Below are positions 4,278 to 12,162 of a stretch of DNA of 12,769 nt, one piece after another (within the stretch, counting starts at the first letter, position 1; the number at the start of each line of letters is the position of its first letter). Location of the stretch: contig JANLOX010000380.1 in the NCBI GenBank assembly GCA_031366795.1, positions 1 to 12,769 on the forward strand, in the 5' to 3' direction. Source of the stretch: Candidatus Eiseniibacteriota bacterium. GTDB taxonomy: Bacteria; Eisenbacteria; RBG-16-71-46. Under the pieces are notes generated by a model. The model was given only the letters and a program-made list of their open reading frames with translations, searched no databases and was not told where the DNA came from. The position numbers and the translations under genes are program-made.

Positions 4278-4283
4278 GCTCCC

Positions 4284-5555
4284 ATGAGCTTGGTCCAGAT
4301 CGATCCGTCGCGTCTGCGGGCCCATTCGACCGTCGTTTGCCGAGTGGGACACGTTTTTATGGGCGGACCGCACCCCGTTGTGGTGCAGTCGATGACCAAT
4401 ACCGACACAGCGGATGCCGCCTCGACCGCCGAGCAGGCGCGCCTGCTGGCCGAAGCGGGCTCCGAGCTGGTGCGCATCACCGTCAACACGCGTGACTCCG
4501 CGGCACAGGTCGCGGAAATCCGGCGCCGCATGGATGACGCCGGCTGCACGGTGCCGCTGGTCGGCGATTTCCATTACAACGGCCACCAGTTGCTCACCGA
4601 GTTCCCCGACTGCGCAGGGGCACTCGCCAAGTACCGTATCAATCCCGGCAATGTAGGGGTCGGTGCGGCGCATGACGACAACTTCCGCCGCATGATCGAA
4701 GTGGCGGTGGCGCACGGCAAACCGGTGCGCATCGGCGTCAACTGGGGCTCGCTCGACCGCGCCATGCTGACCGAGATGATGGACGCCAACGCGCGCCGCA
4801 GCGAACCGCAGGCGGACCGCGACGTGGTGCTCGAGGCGATCCGCGAGAGCGCTCTGCGTTCGGCCGCACTCGCGGAACAATTCGGCCAGCCGCACAACGC
4901 GATCGTGCTGTCGGCCAAGGTCAGCGACGTGCGCGACCTGATTGATGTCTATCGGGGGCTCGCGGCGCACTGCGACTACCCGTTGCACCTGGGGCTCACC
5001 GAGGCGGGACTCGGCTCCAAAGGCATCATCGCCACGACCGCGGCGTTGTCGGTGCTGTTGATCGAAGGCATCGGCGACACGATCCGCACCAGCCTCACGC
5101 CTGCGCCGGGTGGGGATCGCGCCGAGGAAGTCCGGGTGTGCCAGCAGATCCTCCAGTCGCTGGGGCTGCGGCATTTTGCGCCGCAAGTCACGGCGTGCCC
5201 CGGTTGCGGCCGCACCTCGAGCACGTTCTTCCAGGAACTCGCGACGCGCGTCACGGCGCACATTCATGACCGCGTCAACGCCTGGCGCGAGCACTACCCG
5301 GGCGTCGAACAGATGCGCGTGGCGGTGATGGGCTGCGTCGTCAACGGGCCGGGCGAGAGCAAGCATGCCGACATCGGCATCTCGCTTCCGGGTACGGGCG
5401 AGGATCCGCGCGCTCCGGTCTATGTCGATGGCAAGCTGCGGACGACCTTGCGAGGAAATGCCATCCCGGAAGACTTCGCGCGGCTGCTCGATGAGTACGT
5501 GGCGCAGCGCTACGGCGCGGCGACTGGTGCGGACGCTACTCCCGCTCGAAAATAA
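4284..5555 (+). CDS. ispG: (E)-4-hydroxy-3-methylbut-2-enyl-diphosphate synthase (MEP pathway)
   Basis: Contains [62 protein letters not shown], and the [4Fe-4S] ligand motifs CPGCGR and [10 protein letters not shown]. The ORF-track extension to 3909 is antisense to the PLD gene and is not used. Confidence 0.98.
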
Positions 5556-6147
5556 GCGTCTGGTCGCCTTCACCGAAGCCGAACTTCACGTGGCGCTGGT
5601 AGACGAGTTCGCGACCGTTCGGGGCGCTCACCCAGCGATCGTCGAGTGAGGTGTCGAGCATCAGCAGCTTCGCGGTCGAGACGAGGTGCAGCGTGCGCCC
5701 CTCCCACGTCACGACGGAACGAATGTCGCTGTGCGCGACCTTGTTCACCGTCGGCGTGCCACCGGTCGAGTAGATGTAGATCGTGGTGTCGGGCTTCGAG
5801 CCGAGCACCAGGAACAGCGTCTGCTTGATGCGCGTGCCGTCCTGCTCGATCAAGTCGGTGCGTGAGGTCGGCTTGCCGCCCGGGATGATGCCGAAGCTGG
5901 AGCGCGTCATCGACAGCTTCCACCGGCCGGCGAAGGATGGGTGCGCGTTCGTGTCGGCGGGTGCCGCTGCGGGCGCGGTTGCCACGGCGGGGGCCGGCGC
6001 TGCGGCCTGCGCGGGATGCTTCGCGGGTCGCGTCTTCGCGTGTGCGGGGCGCCTCGCGGGGGTCGTCCCGGACGGCGCAGCCGCGGCTGTGCCCGCCACG
6101 CCCAGACACGCCACGAGCATCAGCGCCATCACCTGCCGCACGGTCAT
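5536..6147 (-). CDS. Secreted hypothetical protein: signal peptide, Ala/Pro-rich linker, probable calycin (FABP/lipocalin-like) beta-barrel
   Basis: Hydrophobic N-terminus ending in AAAA, then a low-complexity linker, then FAGRWKL (GxW motif) and alternating beta-strand patterns. It starts 10 nt after the Mur-fusion stop, and its 3' end overlaps the end of ispG by 20 nt. Confidence 0.75.
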
Positions 6148-6157
6148 CGCCCGCGGC

Positions 6158-8176
6158 TCACGAACGTCCGGCGCCGGGCGCAGTCTGCGCCAGCGCCGCC
6201 ACGATCTGCCGCGCTAACCCGCTGAGCGAGGGATCGCGCGCGCCCATCACCAGCACGACATCGCCCTCGCGCGCCTCGGCGGTGATCCGTGAGATCAAGG
6301 CCTCGCGCGAGGCTGCAAACTCAGCGTGCGTCCCACGCGCCGCGATGTCGGCGATGATGTCGGCGGAAGAGAAGTCGCGCTGCGCCGTGCCACCGGCGTA
6401 GAACACCTCGAGCATCCATAGGCGGTCGTCCGGGTGAAGCTCTGTAGAGAAGGTGTCGACGAAGTCGCGCCACAGGAAACGCGTGGGTCCATAGCCATGC
6501 GGCTGGTACACCGCGAGCACCCGGCGTGCGCGCCCCTGCGCGGTGCGGATGGCCGCCGCGATCTTGGCGGCGTTGTGCGCAAAGTCATCGATCACCTCGA
6601 CGCCGCGCGCGATGCCGGCACTCTGGAAACGCCGCCCCACGCCGCGGAAATCCGCGAGCGGGGCGACCAATTCTGCGAGTGGCACACCGACCGCAATGCA
6701 CGCGGCAATGGCAGCCAAGGCGTTCAGGACATTGTGCTCGCCGGGAACCGGCAGCGTGAAACGCACGCCAGACACTTCGAATGTGCTGGATGCGGGCCCC
6801 AGCTCGACGCGTTCACCGCGCACCGTGGCGCGTGGCCCGAACCCGAACACGCGCGCGCCCGGGCTAAGGGACTCGAGGTTGTCGTCCTCCCCCACCACGA
6901 ACGCTTCGCGCACCTGCTCGCGGAAGCGCGCGAACATGCGGCCCACGACTTCGGGTTCCTTATGGTCGCGCTGGAGATTGAGCACGACGCCGACCGCGGG
7001 CCGGTAGCGTACGACCGAGCCGTCGCTCTCGTCGGCCTCGACCACCAGCAAGTCCGAGCCGCCGTACCACGCGTTGCCCCACAGACCTTCCGCCTGAAGT
7101 GCCATCAGGTCACCGCCGGTGATCACCGAGGGCTTGCGGGCAGCACCGCGAAGCATCTCGAACACCATCGCCACGACGGTCGACTTGCCACTGGTGCCGG
7201 TGATGGCGAGTGTGCGGAAGCCGTCGACGAAGTGCGCCAGCAATTCGGAACGGTGCACCATCGGGACGTGGCGCTCGCGCGCCGCGGAGACGTCGGGCAC
7301 CTCGCTCTCGACCGCGGTCGAGACCACGAGTGCCGCGCACGCGTCATTCAGCCCCGAGCCATCCTGCGGCATGATCGCGATGCCCAGCCGCTCCAGCTGT
7401 TCGCGCGCCTCGGGCCGCTCGCCGCGATCGAAGGCGCGGTCACTGCCGCTGGCCTTGCCGCCGAGCATGACCTGGAACTGCGCGAGCGCGCTCATGCCGC
7501 TGCCACCGAGACCGGCATAGTGGAAGCGGCCGGCACCCCGCGGATCGGGGATCGCCGGCTTCTCGCTGCTCGCGGCCGCCGCGGTAGTTGCCGTACCCGC
7601 GGCCGCGGCCGCACCCTCGCCCACGACCACCACCGCATCGCCTTCACGCACGCGGTCGAACAACGCCATGCAATCGGCGCCGCGCATGCGAATGCAGCCG
7701 TGCGACGCCGGCTGGCCGACCGCCGCCTCGTGGTTGGTGGCGTGGATATAGATGTAGCGCTCGAGCGAGTCGAAGCCCTCGCCGCGATTGACGCCGGGCT
7801 CGAGGCCATCGAGCGTCAGGATACGCGTGAGGATCAGGTCCTCGCTCTCGGCTTCCCCATTCCAGATGCGCCCCGTGGGCTCGCGGCTGACGAACTGTGT
7901 CCCCGGCGTGGCCCTGGCGCCGATGCGCGCGTGCACGCGATGCCAGCCCGGCGGCGTGCGGTGCGAACCGCTCATCCCACCGACGCCCAGATACGCGGTC
8001 GACACCGGGTACTCCACGAAGATCTGGCCCTCGACCAACAGCGCAAGCTTTTGGTTCGCTACATCGACAAGGATCACGCGATCGGGCAAGACCTGAAACG
8101 GCGACAGCGGGCGCGCCAGGGCTTCGGCGGCGAGCGCGTTCCAGCGGGTCGAGGCAGCGAGCGAGGGGGACGCCAT
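6158..8176 (-). CDS. Fusion of a YkuD/L,D-transpeptidase-fold domain (ElsL-like) and a MurC/Mpl-like Mur ligase
   Basis: N-terminal domain: YPVST, TPPG, LILTRIL and YIYIHATN...SHGCIRM (catalytic His and Cys). An Ala/Thr linker follows. Complete Mur ligase: GLGGSGMS, SGSD, ITGTSGKST (P-loop), VEADESDGS, NLQRDH, GEHNVLNA, FRGVGRRF, DDFAHN, QPHG and VLVMGA. The start could be 8176, 8194 or 8206. Confidence 0.92.
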   Translation of the reverse strand: MASPSLAASTRWNALAAEALARPLSPFQVLPDRVILVDVANQKLALLVEGQIFVEYPVSTAYLGVGGMSGSHRTPPGWHRVHARIGARATPGTQFVSREPTGRIWNGEAESEDLILTRILTLDGLEPGVNRGEGFDSLERYIYIHATNHEAAVGQPASHGCIRMRGADCMALFDRVREGDAVVVVGEGAAAAAGTATTAAAASSEKPAIPDPRGAGRFHYAGLGGSGMSALAQFQVMLGGKASGSDRAFDRGERPEAREQLERLGIAIMPQDGSGLNDACAALVVSTAVESEVPDVSAARERHVPMVHRSELLAHFVDGFRTLAITGTSGKSTVVAMVFEMLRGAARKPSVITGGDLMALQAEGLWGNAWYGGSDLLVVEADESDGSVVRYRPAVGVVLNLQRDHKEPEVVGRMFARFREQVREAFVVGEDDNLESLSPGARVFGFGPRATVRGERVELGPASSTFEVSGVRFTLPVPGEHNVLNALAAIAACIAVGVPLAELVAPLADFRGVGRRFQSAGIARGVEVIDDFAHNAAKIAAAIRTAQGRARRVLAVYQPHGYGPTRFLWRDFVDTFSTELHPDDRLWMLEVFYAGGTAQRDFSSADIIADIAARGTHAEFAASREALISRITAEAREGDVVLVMGARDPSLSGLARQIVAALAQTAPGAGRS

Positions 8177-8206
8177 GACGCGACTCTGCCACATGCGCCA
8201 CCCCAC

Positions 8207-8238
8207 GAAAAGGCCGGCTTCCGTAAGGGAACCGGCCT
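8207..8238 (-). terminator. Intrinsic terminator downstream of the M43 protease gene
   Basis: The minus strand reads AGGCCGGTTCCC-TTAC-GGAAGCCGGCCT, a GC-rich stem with one G-U pair and one mismatch. It runs into a short T-tract (TTTT counting the stem's last T) about 35 nt after the stop at 8272. Confidence 0.75.
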
Positions 8239-8271
8239 CTCGCGTGCGGCCCGATATTGGGTATCGGGGTG

Positions 8272-9528
8272 TTACGGAATCAGTACGATGCTGCGGGTGA
8301 TCGCCTGGTCGTTGTAGCGCAGCGTCGCGAAGTACATGCCGGGGCGCATCTGCGCGCCACGCAACGAAACGTTGTGCTCGCCGGCCGGGCGTTCCCCGTC
8401 GACCAGCGTCTGCACCAACTCCCCGGCCACATCGAACACCTTGAGCGACACGTTGCCGCGCTTAGGCACGGCGAAGTGCAGCGTCGCCGTGCGTGCGAAC
8501 GGGTTGGGGAATGCCCCACGGAAGCTGAGCTGCGCGCCACCGATCGCCGACGATGAACGCGCCAGCTCGGTGGTGCCGCCACCGACCGTGATGTTGCCGC
8601 CGCCGGCCACGAGTGCCGCGTTCAGCAGGTTCGGACGATACACCGGCACGATACCGTCCATACGCGCGTCCTGGCCCGCTGTGAACGTCGTGTAGCAAGC
8701 GTCGTCCGAGTAATCCATGTAGTTCTCGATCGGGTCATTGCCGGCCGTCGCACACGTGTTCTTGCCCACCGGGCAGCCCGACGTCGAGGTGGCTTCATCC
8801 GGCGTATCGGACACCTGGTCGCCCGGGGCGACACAGCCGCCCTGGAACGTGTGGTAGAGACCGAGATAGTGACCGGTTTCGTGAGCCAGTGTGCCGCCCA
8901 GGTTGTAGGGCGCCAGGTAACCGCCCGGGACCGAGCCATAGTGGAATACGACGCCGTGATGCCAGTCGCTCTCCGCGTATGAGTTCGGGAAGTAGGCCCA
9001 GCCGAGCAGGTTCTGGCCGAGCGCGCAGGAATAAATGTTGAGGCGATGGATGACATCGGTGGCCAACGCCTGCTTGGCGCTGCGCTCCTTGGCCGAACCA
9101 GGCGTCATGGTGAACCACTTGCTGTTGTTGGTGCGGTCCACGCTGGCCAACACGAACGTGTAGCCCGTGTTCACGCCACCATAGAAACCCGAGTAGGCCT
9201 TGTTCATGTAGGCGATCTGGGCATCAATCTGCGACTGCGGAACGTTGCCGGTCGTGCCGCTGTAGATCACGTGCCACGCGACCTTGATCTGACCGCCGAC
9301 GGCCATAGTCTCGAACGGATGGGCCTTGCGATAGCCCTCGACCGCCTGGATGACGCCCGCCATCTCACTGGGCGTCGGGTCGATGGTGGCGCAATTTCGG
9401 TGGGTGATCGCGGCGCCGAGTCCGGCGTCGGAGACTTCGGCGGCATGGACGGATGCTGCGCTGAACGTGCAGAGCGCCAGGGCAAGGGTGAACGTCACCA
9501 ACTGCTGGGTGGGGGTACGACGCTTCAT
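8272..9528 (-). CDS. Secreted M43 (pappalysin/ulilysin-family) zinc metalloprotease with a C-terminal T9SS type A-like/FlgD Ig-like domain
   Basis: Signal peptide ending VHA; propeptide Cys (NCAT, possible cysteine switch); metzincin motif HETGHYLGLYH (8851-8883) followed by TFQGGC; DQVSDTP; Met-turn NYMDY; C-terminal FPNPF...VFDVAG...GMYFATL. Shine-Dalgarno GGAGGT at 9539-9534. Confidence 0.93.
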   Translation of the reverse strand: MKRRTPTQQLVTFTLALALCTFSAASVHAAEVSDAGLGAAITHRNCATIDPTPSEMAGVIQAVEGYRKAHPFETMAVGGQIKVAWHVIYSGTTGNVPQSQIDAQIAYMNKAYSGFYGGVNTGYTFVLASVDRTNNSKWFTMTPGSAKERSAKQALATDVIHRLNIYSCALGQNLLGWAYFPNSYAESDWHHGVVFHYGSVPGGYLAPYNLGGTLAHETGHYLGLYHTFQGGCVAPGDQVSDTPDEATSTSGCPVGKNTCATAGNDPIENYMDYSDDACYTTFTAGQDARMDGIVPVYRPNLLNAALVAGGGNITVGGGTTELARSSSAIGGAQLSFRGAFPNPFARTATLHFAVPKRGNVSLKVFDVAGELVQTLVDGERPAGEHNVSLRGAQMRPGMYFATLRYNDQAITRSIVLIP

Positions 9529-9723: not shown

Positions 9724-12162
9724 GTGATTCCCCCTGTTTGGACGCCAGTGACTGAGCTAAGGCAACGCCTGCGCGGTCTCCTGCCCCGGCGGCGCCTAAC
9801 GCGCTGGACGGTGCTGGTGGGGTTCGTCGTGTTGGCGGGTGCCACTTGGCTCAGCTTCACGGCGCGCGTGATGGCGTTGCGCGAGATGCGCACCACCGGC
9901 CCGGGCTGGAGCTATCCCTCACGGTTGTACTCAGCGGATTTGCCACTCACCGCCGGCGCGCGGCTGTTTGCGGATCCGCTGCTGCGCCAGGTGGAGGTGC
10001 GCGGCTACAGGCGGGTGGCGGGTCAGGCCGTAGCCCCCGGTGAGTTCACGTCGTTGTCGAATGCGATCGAGATCGGTGTGCGCGGTTTCCACGCGGCGGA
10101 CGATCCCGCGGGCCACGGCGGGCCAGAGCGTGTGCGCGTGGTCTTCGGTCGCGGTGGCATTGCCACGATCGAACGACGCGGCGGCTATCGCGGCCTCCCG
10201 GCGCCGGATCTCGCACACCCTCCCCGGCTCGAACCCGTTGCGTTCGCCACCGTGCTAGACTCACTGCGCGTGCGGCGCACGTGGTTACCGCTTTCACGGG
10301 TGCCGCGCGTGGTGCAGGACGCCGTGATCGCTTCAGAAGACCGGCGCTTTCGCCAGCACCTCGGGCTCGACTTGCGCTCGAACGCGCGGGCGTTGTTCGT
10401 CAACGTAGCCGCCGGCGGCGTGCGCGAGGGCGGCAGCACGCTCACTCAACAGTTGGCGCGCGGATTGTTCCTGGGCCGCGAACGGACTTTGCCGCGCAAA
10501 GTGGTGGAGGCCGCGCTGGCCGTGGGTCTCGAACTCGCGTTGTCCAAGGACGAGATCCTCGAGATGTACCTGAACTCCGTGTACTGGGGGCAGGATGGCG
10601 GCGATGGCGTCGCCGGTCTGGCCGAGGCGTCGCGTCATTACTTCGGGGTGCCCGCGGAATCGTTGGGCCTCGCCCAGGCGGCGCTGCTGACCGGGATCAT
10701 TCCGGGGCCCAATGCGCTCTCGCCCTTCCGGCGCCCCAACCTCGCGAAGCGCACGCGCCATCGCGTATTGATGGACATGGTCGAACTCGGGCGCATCGAC
10801 TCCGCCGCCGCCGGCGCCGCGGACCGCTCACCACTCGGCCTCCACCACCAACCACCGCCTGCCGACCGCTTCCCCGCCGCGAGCGGTTTCATACGCGATG
10901 AGTTGGCGCGCCGGCTCGGCGCGGGTGCCGCCGAACACATGGGACTCGCCGTGTTCACCACGATCGATCCGGTGTGGCAGGCCGACGCCGAATCGCTGCT
11001 CGTGATGGGGCTCAACGAACTCGAGCCGCCGCACGGACGCGATCTATTGCAGGGCGCCTTCGTCGCCATGAACGCGAGCGATGGTGCGGTGCGCGCGATG
11101 GTCGGTGGCCGGGACGACCAGCAGGGCCAATTCAATCGCGCGACACAGGCGCGACGGCAGCCGGGCTCCGCGATCAAGCCGGTGGTCTACTCGGCTGCCC
11201 TCGATCCCACCCGCGGCGCGCCGCGCTTTACGCCGGCGAGCACCGTTCCCGACCAACGGCGCTCGTTCGATACGCCCGAGGGCCCATGGACGCCGCGCAA
11301 CGACCAGGAGGATTATCACGAGCAGGTCACGCTGGCGAAGGCGTTGGCCAAGTCGCTCAATGTCGCCACGGCCAATCTCGTGCAGTTGATCGGCCCCGGC
11401 ACCGTGGTGCGCTACGCCGAGCGCTTTGGACTTGGGACGCTCAAGCCCGTCGCGAGCATCGGGCTCGGCTCCAACGAGGTGACGCCGCTGGCGCTGACCT
11501 CCGCCTACACGGTGTTCGCGAATGCCGGAATGCATGCGCCGAGCACCGGCCTTCGCGCGGTCGTCGCGCACCACGCGGGCAATCCGTTACCGCGGCTCAC
11601 GGCACCCACACGTGTGCTGCCGGTCGAGACCGCAACGCTGATGACGGGGTTGCTCGAGAACGTGGTGAACTTCGGCGTCGCCTACCCGCTGCGCCACAAC
11701 TATGGATTCACGCGGCCCACCGCGGGCAAGACGGGCACGACGAACGATTACAACGACGGCTGGTTCGTCGGCTTTACGCCCGACGTCGTGGCCGGCGTCT
11801 GGGTCGGGCACGACCAGCCGCGCTCGCTGGCCGGGCCGTCGTCGGATACCGCGCTGCGTGTGTGGGCGCGCGTGATGACGCGGCTGCTCGCGGGAGTGCC
11901 GGGGATAGACTTCGCCTCGGACAAGGGGCTGCAGCTCGCGTGGATCGATCCCTACACGGGCGGTCTCGCGCGCAGAGACTGCCCGGTGCCGACGCGCGTG
12001 CCATTCCTGCCCGGGACCGCTCCCGTGAAGACCTGCACGCGGGATCACACGCATGACTGGGAGAAGATCCGCGCGGCAGCCGCCGCCGAGAGCCTTACCA
12101 TCAACAACATGGTTCGGGAGGACCTGATGCGACTTGCCGATTCGACCGCGGCGGAACCATGA
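9724..12162 (+). CDS. mrcB: Class A bifunctional penicillin-binding protein, PBP1B type (TM, UB2H-like, transglycosylase, transpeptidase)
   Basis: N-terminal TM helix and a UB2H-like segment (PSRLYS...GYRRV...PGEF...RLEP). GT51 motifs: EDRRFRQHLG, GGSTLTQQL, RKVVE, KDEILEMYLN. Transpeptidase motifs: SAIK, SLN, KTG. The start (GTG at 9724 or 9748) is uncertain. Confidence 0.9.
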   Translation: MIPPVWTPVTELRQRLRGLLPRRRLTRWTVLVGFVVLAGATWLSFTARVMALREMRTTGPGWSYPSRLYSADLPLTAGARLFADPLLRQVEVRGYRRVAGQAVAPGEFTSLSNAIEIGVRGFHAADDPAGHGGPERVRVVFGRGGIATIERRGGYRGLPAPDLAHPPRLEPVAFATVLDSLRVRRTWLPLSRVPRVVQDAVIASEDRRFRQHLGLDLRSNARALFVNVAAGGVREGGSTLTQQLARGLFLGRERTLPRKVVEAALAVGLELALSKDEILEMYLNSVYWGQDGGDGVAGLAEASRHYFGVPAESLGLAQAALLTGIIPGPNALSPFRRPNLAKRTRHRVLMDMVELGRIDSAAAGAADRSPLGLHHQPPPADRFPAASGFIRDELARRLGAGAAEHMGLAVFTTIDPVWQADAESLLVMGLNELEPPHGRDLLQGAFVAMNASDGAVRAMVGGRDDQQGQFNRATQARRQPGSAIKPVVYSAALDPTRGAPRFTPASTVPDQRRSFDTPEGPWTPRNDQEDYHEQVTLAKALAKSLNVATANLVQLIGPGTVVRYAERFGLGTLKPVASIGLGSNEVTPLALTSAYTVFANAGMHAPSTGLRAVVAHHAGNPLPRLTAPTRVLPVETATLMTGLLENVVNFGVAYPLRHNYGFTRPTAGKTGTTNDYNDGWFVGFTPDVVAGVWVGHDQPRSLAGPSSDTALRVWARVMTRLLAGVPGIDFASDKGLQLAWIDPYTGGLARRDCPVPTRVPFLPGTAPVKTCTRDHTHDWEKIRAAAAAESLTINNMVREDLMRLADSTAAEP

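Follow-up and report, generated by a model that had tools for sequence, protein, structure and literature searches.

An ElsL-like YkuD domain fused to a Mur ligase in Candidatus Eiseniibacteriota: a candidate trim-and-ligate enzyme for the re-use of wall peptides

In the accessible text of PMC8649774, ElsL of Acinetobacter baumannii is described as a cytoplasmic enzyme with M4-to-M3 activity, of which a C138S mutant was made. According to the available parts of PMC8649774 and PMC13046382, loss of ElsL or LdcA leads to tetrapeptide toxicity that is exerted via Mpl. The available portion of PMC3060825 attributes the binding of the incoming L-Ala in MurC to two arginines (R383/R386 in Escherichia coli and R377/R380 in Haemophilus influenzae) and gives a weak L-Ala activity for Mpl (0.7 vs 260 per minute). 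In E. coli, free peptides released by periplasmic amidases are known to be imported through Opp (PMC10622912, in its accessible text), and bacteria without mpl and ldcA, such as Caulobacter crescentus, probably degrade wall peptides and do not re-use them, as indicated in the accessible sections of PMC13046382 and PMC11980594.

The window analysed here is a whole stretch of 12,769 nucleotides (contig JANLOX010000380.1) from a Candidatus Eiseniibacteriota bacterium. The gene under study lies on its minus strand at 6158..8176 and encodes 672 amino acids, in which an ElsL-like YkuD domain, a linker, and a three-domain Mur ligase were recognized from the ORF, Pfam, profiles, and trees. As the preliminary description had claimed, the reading frame (8176..6158) was translated without a stop from one part to the other, and all four Pfam domains scored above their cut-offs (YkuD, residues 32-184; Mur_ligase, 218-321; Mur_ligase_M, 325-493; Mur_ligase_C, 515-647). 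Its statement that no Met lies between the linker and the GxGGxG motif of the ligase was extended to all common start codons, as no in-frame ATG, GTG, or TTG was found between residue 185 and Gly222 of the ligase glycine loop. Alternative starts exist farther upstream (GTG at 8206 and ATG at 8194), and the N-terminal lengths of the homologs favour the start at 8176.

The fusion was confirmed to be genuine. The YkuD domain and the three Mur domains occurred together in all 120 top homologs (the best 120 of 4557 database matches), so that the architecture, for which a search across genomes had been proposed, is not confined to one assembly. Likewise, a proposed check of coverage showed the linker to be spanned by one contig per run in four runs from two studies, with zero substitutions or gaps, one of the four runs possibly being the assembly's own source. 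Split yet adjacent ElsL and ligase genes do occur among the relatives (L023-L026 and L033) and would fit an artefact of assembly or frame in which two separate genes are read as one; in view of the fused homologs and the unchanged linker, this explanation was dismissed as having a negligible probability.

The linker (about 7541..7621, minus strand) is Ala/Thr-rich and weakly conserved, appears as a gap in the family consensus, and is about 17 residues longer than that of most homologs. In the structure model (mean pLDDT 86, pTM 0.70), residues 188-207 of the linker had a pLDDT below 50, and the placement of the domains relative to each other was left free. A crude check by hydropathy and Tat motif detected no export signal, the best N-terminal 12-residue Kyte-Doolittle value being 0.83; N-terminal hydropathy exceeded 1.8 in just two of the 120 homologs, and a Tat motif was present in none. 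In the model, the sole hydrophobic 19-mer of the fusion (residues 483-501) forms part of helices in the ATPase domain. These results agree with the absence of a signal peptide and of a transmembrane helix noted earlier. A cytoplasmic location also accords with the attachment of the YkuD domain to an ATP-dependent ligase.

The N-terminal domain (residues 32-184; 7625..8083, minus strand) is a predicted cytoplasmic L,D-carboxypeptidase. It matched Pfam YkuD with 71.7 bits and the ElsL model NF040925 with 134.5 bits, which is under the cut-off of 270 that none of the 151 genomes of the phylum reached, and the best score with Ldt models was 30 bits. Identity to a 167-aa YkuD protein of A. baumannii was 45% (E 1e-48). 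The His and Cys that had been singled out in the preliminary description are His145 (7742..7744), the YkuD-motif His with a presumed catalytic role by family, which aligns with His122 of ElsL, and Cys161 (7694..7696), the putative nucleophile, which aligns with ElsL Cys138; both were invariant in 120 of 120 homologs. The suggested membership of the ElsL-like subfamily is thus borne out by the scores, the identity, and the aligned Cys. By inference, the domain would work like ElsL, though it scores under the cut-off of the ElsL model. An N-terminal helix (residues 6-20; 8117..8161, minus strand), seen in the model and in the alignments, is conserved among the fusions. A periplasmic L,D-transpeptidase was also considered and rejected, on the basis of the hydropathy check, which revealed neither signal nor anchor, and of the Ldt scores, which did not exceed 30 bits.

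The ligase occupies residues 217-664 (6185..7528, minus strand). Its glycine loop and the residues Lys331 (P-loop), Glu380, His405, Asp531, His534, and His560 were invariant, the ATP/Mg ligands Lys331, Glu380, His405, and Asp531 being retained in all 120 homologs. Foldseek with the model returned MurC as the best match (E 5e-40) and Mpl as the next (2e-28), and identity to the MurC of the same genome was 35%. Profile scores were 281.6 with the murC model TIGR01082 (cut-off 335.1) and 110.3 with the mpl model TIGR01081 (cut-off 388.7). When the L-Ala site was aligned, Arg377, Arg380, and Tyr346 of MurC corresponded to Gly561, Pro564, and Phe532 of the fusion; Gly561 and Pro564 (6485..6496) stand in place of the two L-Ala-binding arginines, and Phe532, as in Mpl, together with Asn535 and Lys538 (6563..6583) is diagnostic of the lineage in the amino-acid-binding domain. 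Arg647 (6236..6238), which is invariant in the lineage and Gly in MurC and Mpl, is a candidate replacement for the carboxylate-binding residue. Compared with 17 MurC and 5 Mpl sequences, the fixed differences of the lineage were Gly561, Pro564, Phe532, Asn535, Lys538, Arg647, Arg247, and Ser329.

In a 67-row tree, which did not fix the root of the split among MurC, Mpl, and the third lineage, the lineage came out as a group (SH-aLRT 94) distinct from MurC (99) and from Mpl (100). It was also separate (87) in a 46-row mixture-model tree that included Gram-positive MurC, with MurC plus Mpl at 92 and Mpl as its own clade at 100; both trees were quick ones with a long-branch outgroup. A sister relation of the lineage to Mpl was not rejected (AU p 0.52). 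On these sequence grounds, the ligase is a third lineage, a member of neither the MurC nor the Mpl family. Membership in Mpl was dismissed from the low mpl score, the separate branch in both trees, and the missing motifs: the glycine-loop Phe, the FFDKRSK loop, EPRSNT, and SNG, which are Mpl-specific in the accessible part of PMC3060825, were absent from the ligase alignment, and just Phe-Ala-His was common.

In the host genome, which is 96% complete, a canonical murC is located in the dcw cluster (contig C425), and the fusion gene lies outside that cluster. No match to LdcA, Mpl, or AmpD was found in this genome, and none to AmpG above the cut-off. The predicted pattern, in which the dcw murC is kept and ldcA and mpl are missing, was hence observed here. 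The genome also carries a murQ-sugar ABC-anmK set, nagZ, Opp-type genes, and Amidase_3 genes, as well as YcjG-like and YkfC-like (SH3_16 + NlpC/P60) genes for complete peptide breakdown. The murQ, sugar ABC transporter, and anmK genes stand in one row (C121 and C399; L183, L187), which is likely an uptake route for anhydro-MurNAc without AmpG or MurP. The neighbours of the fusion in the window gave no clue to its pathway: an M43 metallopeptidase that ends in a sorting-like domain (8272-9528, minus strand) and has a homolog close to the ligase at 15 of the 40 loci from the phylum; a 203-aa ORF immediately downstream (5536-6147, minus strand) with a signal-peptide-like start and no Pfam match; and ispG (GcpE; 4281-5555, plus strand), which recurs close to the fusion at 10 of those 40 loci. 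Pfam also identified a UB2H-containing class A penicillin-binding protein (9724-12162, plus strand). No promoter or terminator consensus was detected within 5400-8400.

Subsequently, the gene content of 151 genomes of the phylum was compared, including one unpublished genome (G015, with ligase and LdcA). The ligase lineage was present in 107 of them, a count that takes in two partial matches and leaves G074 out. An L,D-carboxypeptidase was found in 107 of 107 ligase carriers (106 of 106 without G015), ElsL-like in 64 and LdcA in 43 more, after six weak ElsL-like matches near 1e-4 had been dropped. Neither peptidase nor ligase was found in 36 genomes, and a peptidase without the ligase in eight. 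In total, the phylum had 65 strong ElsL-like matches, 53 LdcA, and mpl in none of 151 genomes, and the ElsL-like protein and LdcA occurred together in just three. Related genomes are not independent, and the family-majority version of this ligase/peptidase table reads 9, 0, 1, and 7.

A scan of GTDB yielded at least 585 confirmed relatives, of which the best 80, a set biased towards the query, were retained. Among these 80 loci, 29 were fused, 11 had ElsL adjacent (at least one through a frameshift), 11 had LdcA adjacent, and 29 had neither. Fusions were seen in Eisenbacteria, Holophagaceae, Methyloceanibacter, Nitrospirota, and Syntrophaceae, and fell into two sub-branches of the 67-row tree, each of which also had unfused members. 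When 24 of the 29 loci with neither, all outside the phylum, were checked genome-wide, LdcA was encoded elsewhere in 10, ElsL elsewhere in two, and neither in 12. An even sample of Alphaproteobacteria contained the ligase in 36 of 301 genomes, and in the best 30 loci a Pfam-confirmed S66 (LdcA) gene was next door in 25, 11 of them downstream in line and 14 divergent; as a control, ldcA was beside the canonical murC in none of 30 loci from other genomes with the same flank. The strongest evidence for an action of the ligase on wall peptides is that it neighbours two carboxypeptidases unrelated to each other. Among 50 carriers from other phyla, 44 had a further murC-type gene, whole or partial, five had the lineage ligase alone, and one had the lineage ligase plus mpl; mpl was present in two of the 50.

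Several single loci were also recorded. A Myxococcota genome (G162; L089, L190) carries mpl and the lineage ligase, and no canonical murC was found in its assembly, which may be incomplete. At an Elusimicrobiota locus (L053:2021-7212), the genes flanking the ligase encode an SH3_16/NlpC-P60 peptidase and an Amidase_3 protein. At six alphaproteobacterial loci (L055, L061, L063, L065, L068, and L096), one gene family follows the fusion on the opposite strand, and its member at L055 is a Scaffold+YkuD transpeptidase. Plasmid records gave MurC-level matches only, and phage records contained no fusion. An unverified 'bacteriophage' scaffold (MT835979.1; L196) encodes a lineage ligase by motif and by its tree position near gut alphaproteobacterial members, and is probably bacterial DNA.

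The Elusimicrobiaceae represent a different situation. In 39 of 41 genomes of this family the lineage ligase was the sole MurC-type gene, the remaining two being without a match. Five well-assembled genomes all had murB (split in one), and LdcA was found in none of the five. In one genome (G204), MurD and MurE are present, and the ligase follows dapA, aspartokinase, asd, and dapB in a row. The members in this family mostly have Ala and Ser at positions 561 and 564, and no peptidase was adjacent in nine loci. These ligases must presumably add a single amino acid, because MurD needs that product, and it looks like the essential gene MurC was replaced by a paralog here. Therefore, the ligase family as a whole cannot be taken to be peptide-specific.

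From the architecture, the intact catalytic residues, the lineage, and the co-occurrence, all of which were observed directly, we infer the activities as follows. Periplasmic amidases would free wall peptides, which may enter through the Opp-type transporter, as judged from the gene content. The ElsL-like domain, by its homology to ElsL, would remove the terminal D-Ala from tetrapeptides, either free or on sugar or UDP-MurNAc. Using ATP, the ligase would join the tripeptide to UDP-MurNAc, as the genomic coupling suggests, and thereby feed MurF; the fusion would hold the trimmer beside a ligase that might otherwise make a dead-end UDP-MurNAc-tetrapeptide. We regard it as reasonably probable that the fusion trims the tetrapeptide to the tripeptide and ligates the latter to UDP-MurNAc, taking over the work of LdcA plus Mpl without orthology to either. 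The preliminary description had proposed this trimming and ligation; the recycling role gained strong, though indirect, support from the pairing with two unrelated carboxypeptidases, and its reading of the ligase had missed the separate non-Mpl lineage and the sole-MurC sub-branch in Elusimicrobiaceae. More broadly, the third-lineage ligase would do the job of Mpl where mpl is missing and would probably be broad enough for L-Ala too. A broad ligase that specializes either way is plausible because Mpl itself is weakly active on L-Ala. We hold the case to be evenly poised that the lineage, found in more than 10 phyla, is dual-function, recycling in Mpl's place when paired or fused with an L,D-carboxypeptidase and having replaced MurC in Elusimicrobiaceae.

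Against the recycling reading stand the sole-MurC role in Elusimicrobiaceae, the 12 of 24 outside-phylum carriers without either peptidase, the two carriers that also have mpl, the absence of the Mpl-specific motifs, the closer resemblance of the ligase to MurC in sequence and fold, and, in the host genome, the lack of AmpD and of any AmpG match above the cut-off and the presence of the YkfC-like and YcjG-like breakdown genes. The YkfC-like SH3_16 + NlpC/P60 protein of this genome, together with the YkfC-like gene directly upstream of the ligase at L053, would suit a ligase that attaches the dipeptide L-Ala-D-Glu: the trimmer would form the tripeptide, a YkfC-type peptidase would remove meso-DAP, and the ligated dipeptide would feed MurE. 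This route predicts the same carboxypeptidase association; however, L053 was the only case of a YkfC-like neighbour among 47 neighbours scanned, whereas carboxypeptidases are the constant partner, and a dipeptide-limited ligase would yield no toxic tetrapeptide product and so would explain the fusion less well. We consider the dipeptide route unlikely. If the ligase were just a further MurC for a single amino acid (L-Ala, Gly, or Ser) and the fusion merely co-regulated breakdown and precursor synthesis, this would account for the sole MurC-type gene of Elusimicrobiaceae and for its position in the G204 row; the murC score is higher than the mpl score, Foldseek favours MurC, and Lys538 and Arg647 could stand in for the lost arginines. 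Nevertheless, the separate murC-type gene in 44 of 50 carriers would make a second MurC redundant, the constant co-occurrence in the phylum and the ldcA adjacency in Alphaproteobacteria would be left unexplained, and the Elusimicrobiaceae members are mostly altered at 561 and 564 and have no adjacent peptidase in nine loci, which renders this explanation improbable for the fusion.

YkuD domains are mostly transpeptidases. This usual activity and the score under the ElsL cut-off would allow the N-domain to act on cytoplasmic peptides by transpeptidation or by exchange of D-amino acids instead of by hydrolysis, but it has 45% identity to ElsL, hardly ever coexists with LdcA in a genome of the phylum, and substitutes for LdcA as the neighbour of this ligase, so that we see a very slight chance of this. 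It is also very unlikely that another acceptor takes the place of UDP-MurNAc in the ligase reaction, in a pathway unlike Mpl recycling. Across the lineage, the uridine pocket does depart from that of MurC, with Arg247 in place of Leu51, Asp272 in place of His71, and an insertion; Ser329 replaces the P-loop His, and the Asp-x-Tyr loop behind His405 has been lost; yet Mpl too alters its uracil contacts and still uses UDP-MurNAc, according to the accessible text of PMC3060825, and the Elusimicrobiaceae members share the changes and presumably must use UDP-MurNAc.

In the literature searched, which was mostly open-access and included the accessible parts of PMC8649774, PMC13046382, PMC11980594, PMC13204101, PMC10117817, PMC11915815, and PMC10622912, no description of the fusion or of the ligase lineage was found. 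None of the ten supplementary files of the ElsL paper listed Geothrix, Eisenbacteria, Methyloceanibacter, or Nitrospira, and the single 'Holophaga' match in them was a 180-aa Thermotomaculum protein. The proposed chemistry is known, and the enzyme family and the fusion appear to be new. The pairing of trimmer and ligase across many bacterial groups suggests a second way of re-using wall peptides. If this is true, a widespread ligase annotated as murC and tied to two unrelated carboxypeptidases would fill the recycling gap left where mpl and ldcA are lacking, and many annotations would be corrected; peptide re-ligation would be common beyond the proteobacteria that carry mpl, and trimming and ligation would be united on one chain in the fusion. 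The Elusimicrobiaceae case suggests, in addition, that this paralog assumed the essential MurC step. Holophaga foetida (L052) is a cultured carrier of the fusion, which makes the question directly testable.

Compared with the known systems, the N-domain resembles A. baumannii ElsL (NF040925; PMC8649774, in its accessible text) as a signal-less YkuD protein with the same aligned His and Cys; ElsL, however, is a stand-alone protein that partners Mpl, whereas the domain described here is joined to a non-Mpl ligase and adds the helix of residues 6-20, which is absent from Acinetobacter ElsL. With Mpl (TIGR01081; PDB 3HN7; PMC3060825, accessible part), the ligase shares the three-domain fold, the Phe in Asp-Asp-Phe-Ala-His, the lack of a MurC-type arginine pair, the status of a second copy next to MurC, and a functional link with an L,D-carboxypeptidase, but it is without the four Mpl motifs and forms a separate branch. 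MurC (TIGR01082; PDB 1P3D, 2F00) is nearest in sequence and fold, with the ATP/Mg ligands in common; the fusion ligase nevertheless scores below the MurC cut-off, is not in the dcw cluster, has neither R377/R380 nor the His that stacks on uracil, and carries the invariant Lys538 and Arg647. Finally, the fusion would follow the same trim-then-ligate logic as the E. coli pathway of LdcA (peptidase S66) and Mpl; neither enzyme of that pathway is orthologous to the parts of the fusion, yet stand-alone ligases of the lineage do pair with LdcA.
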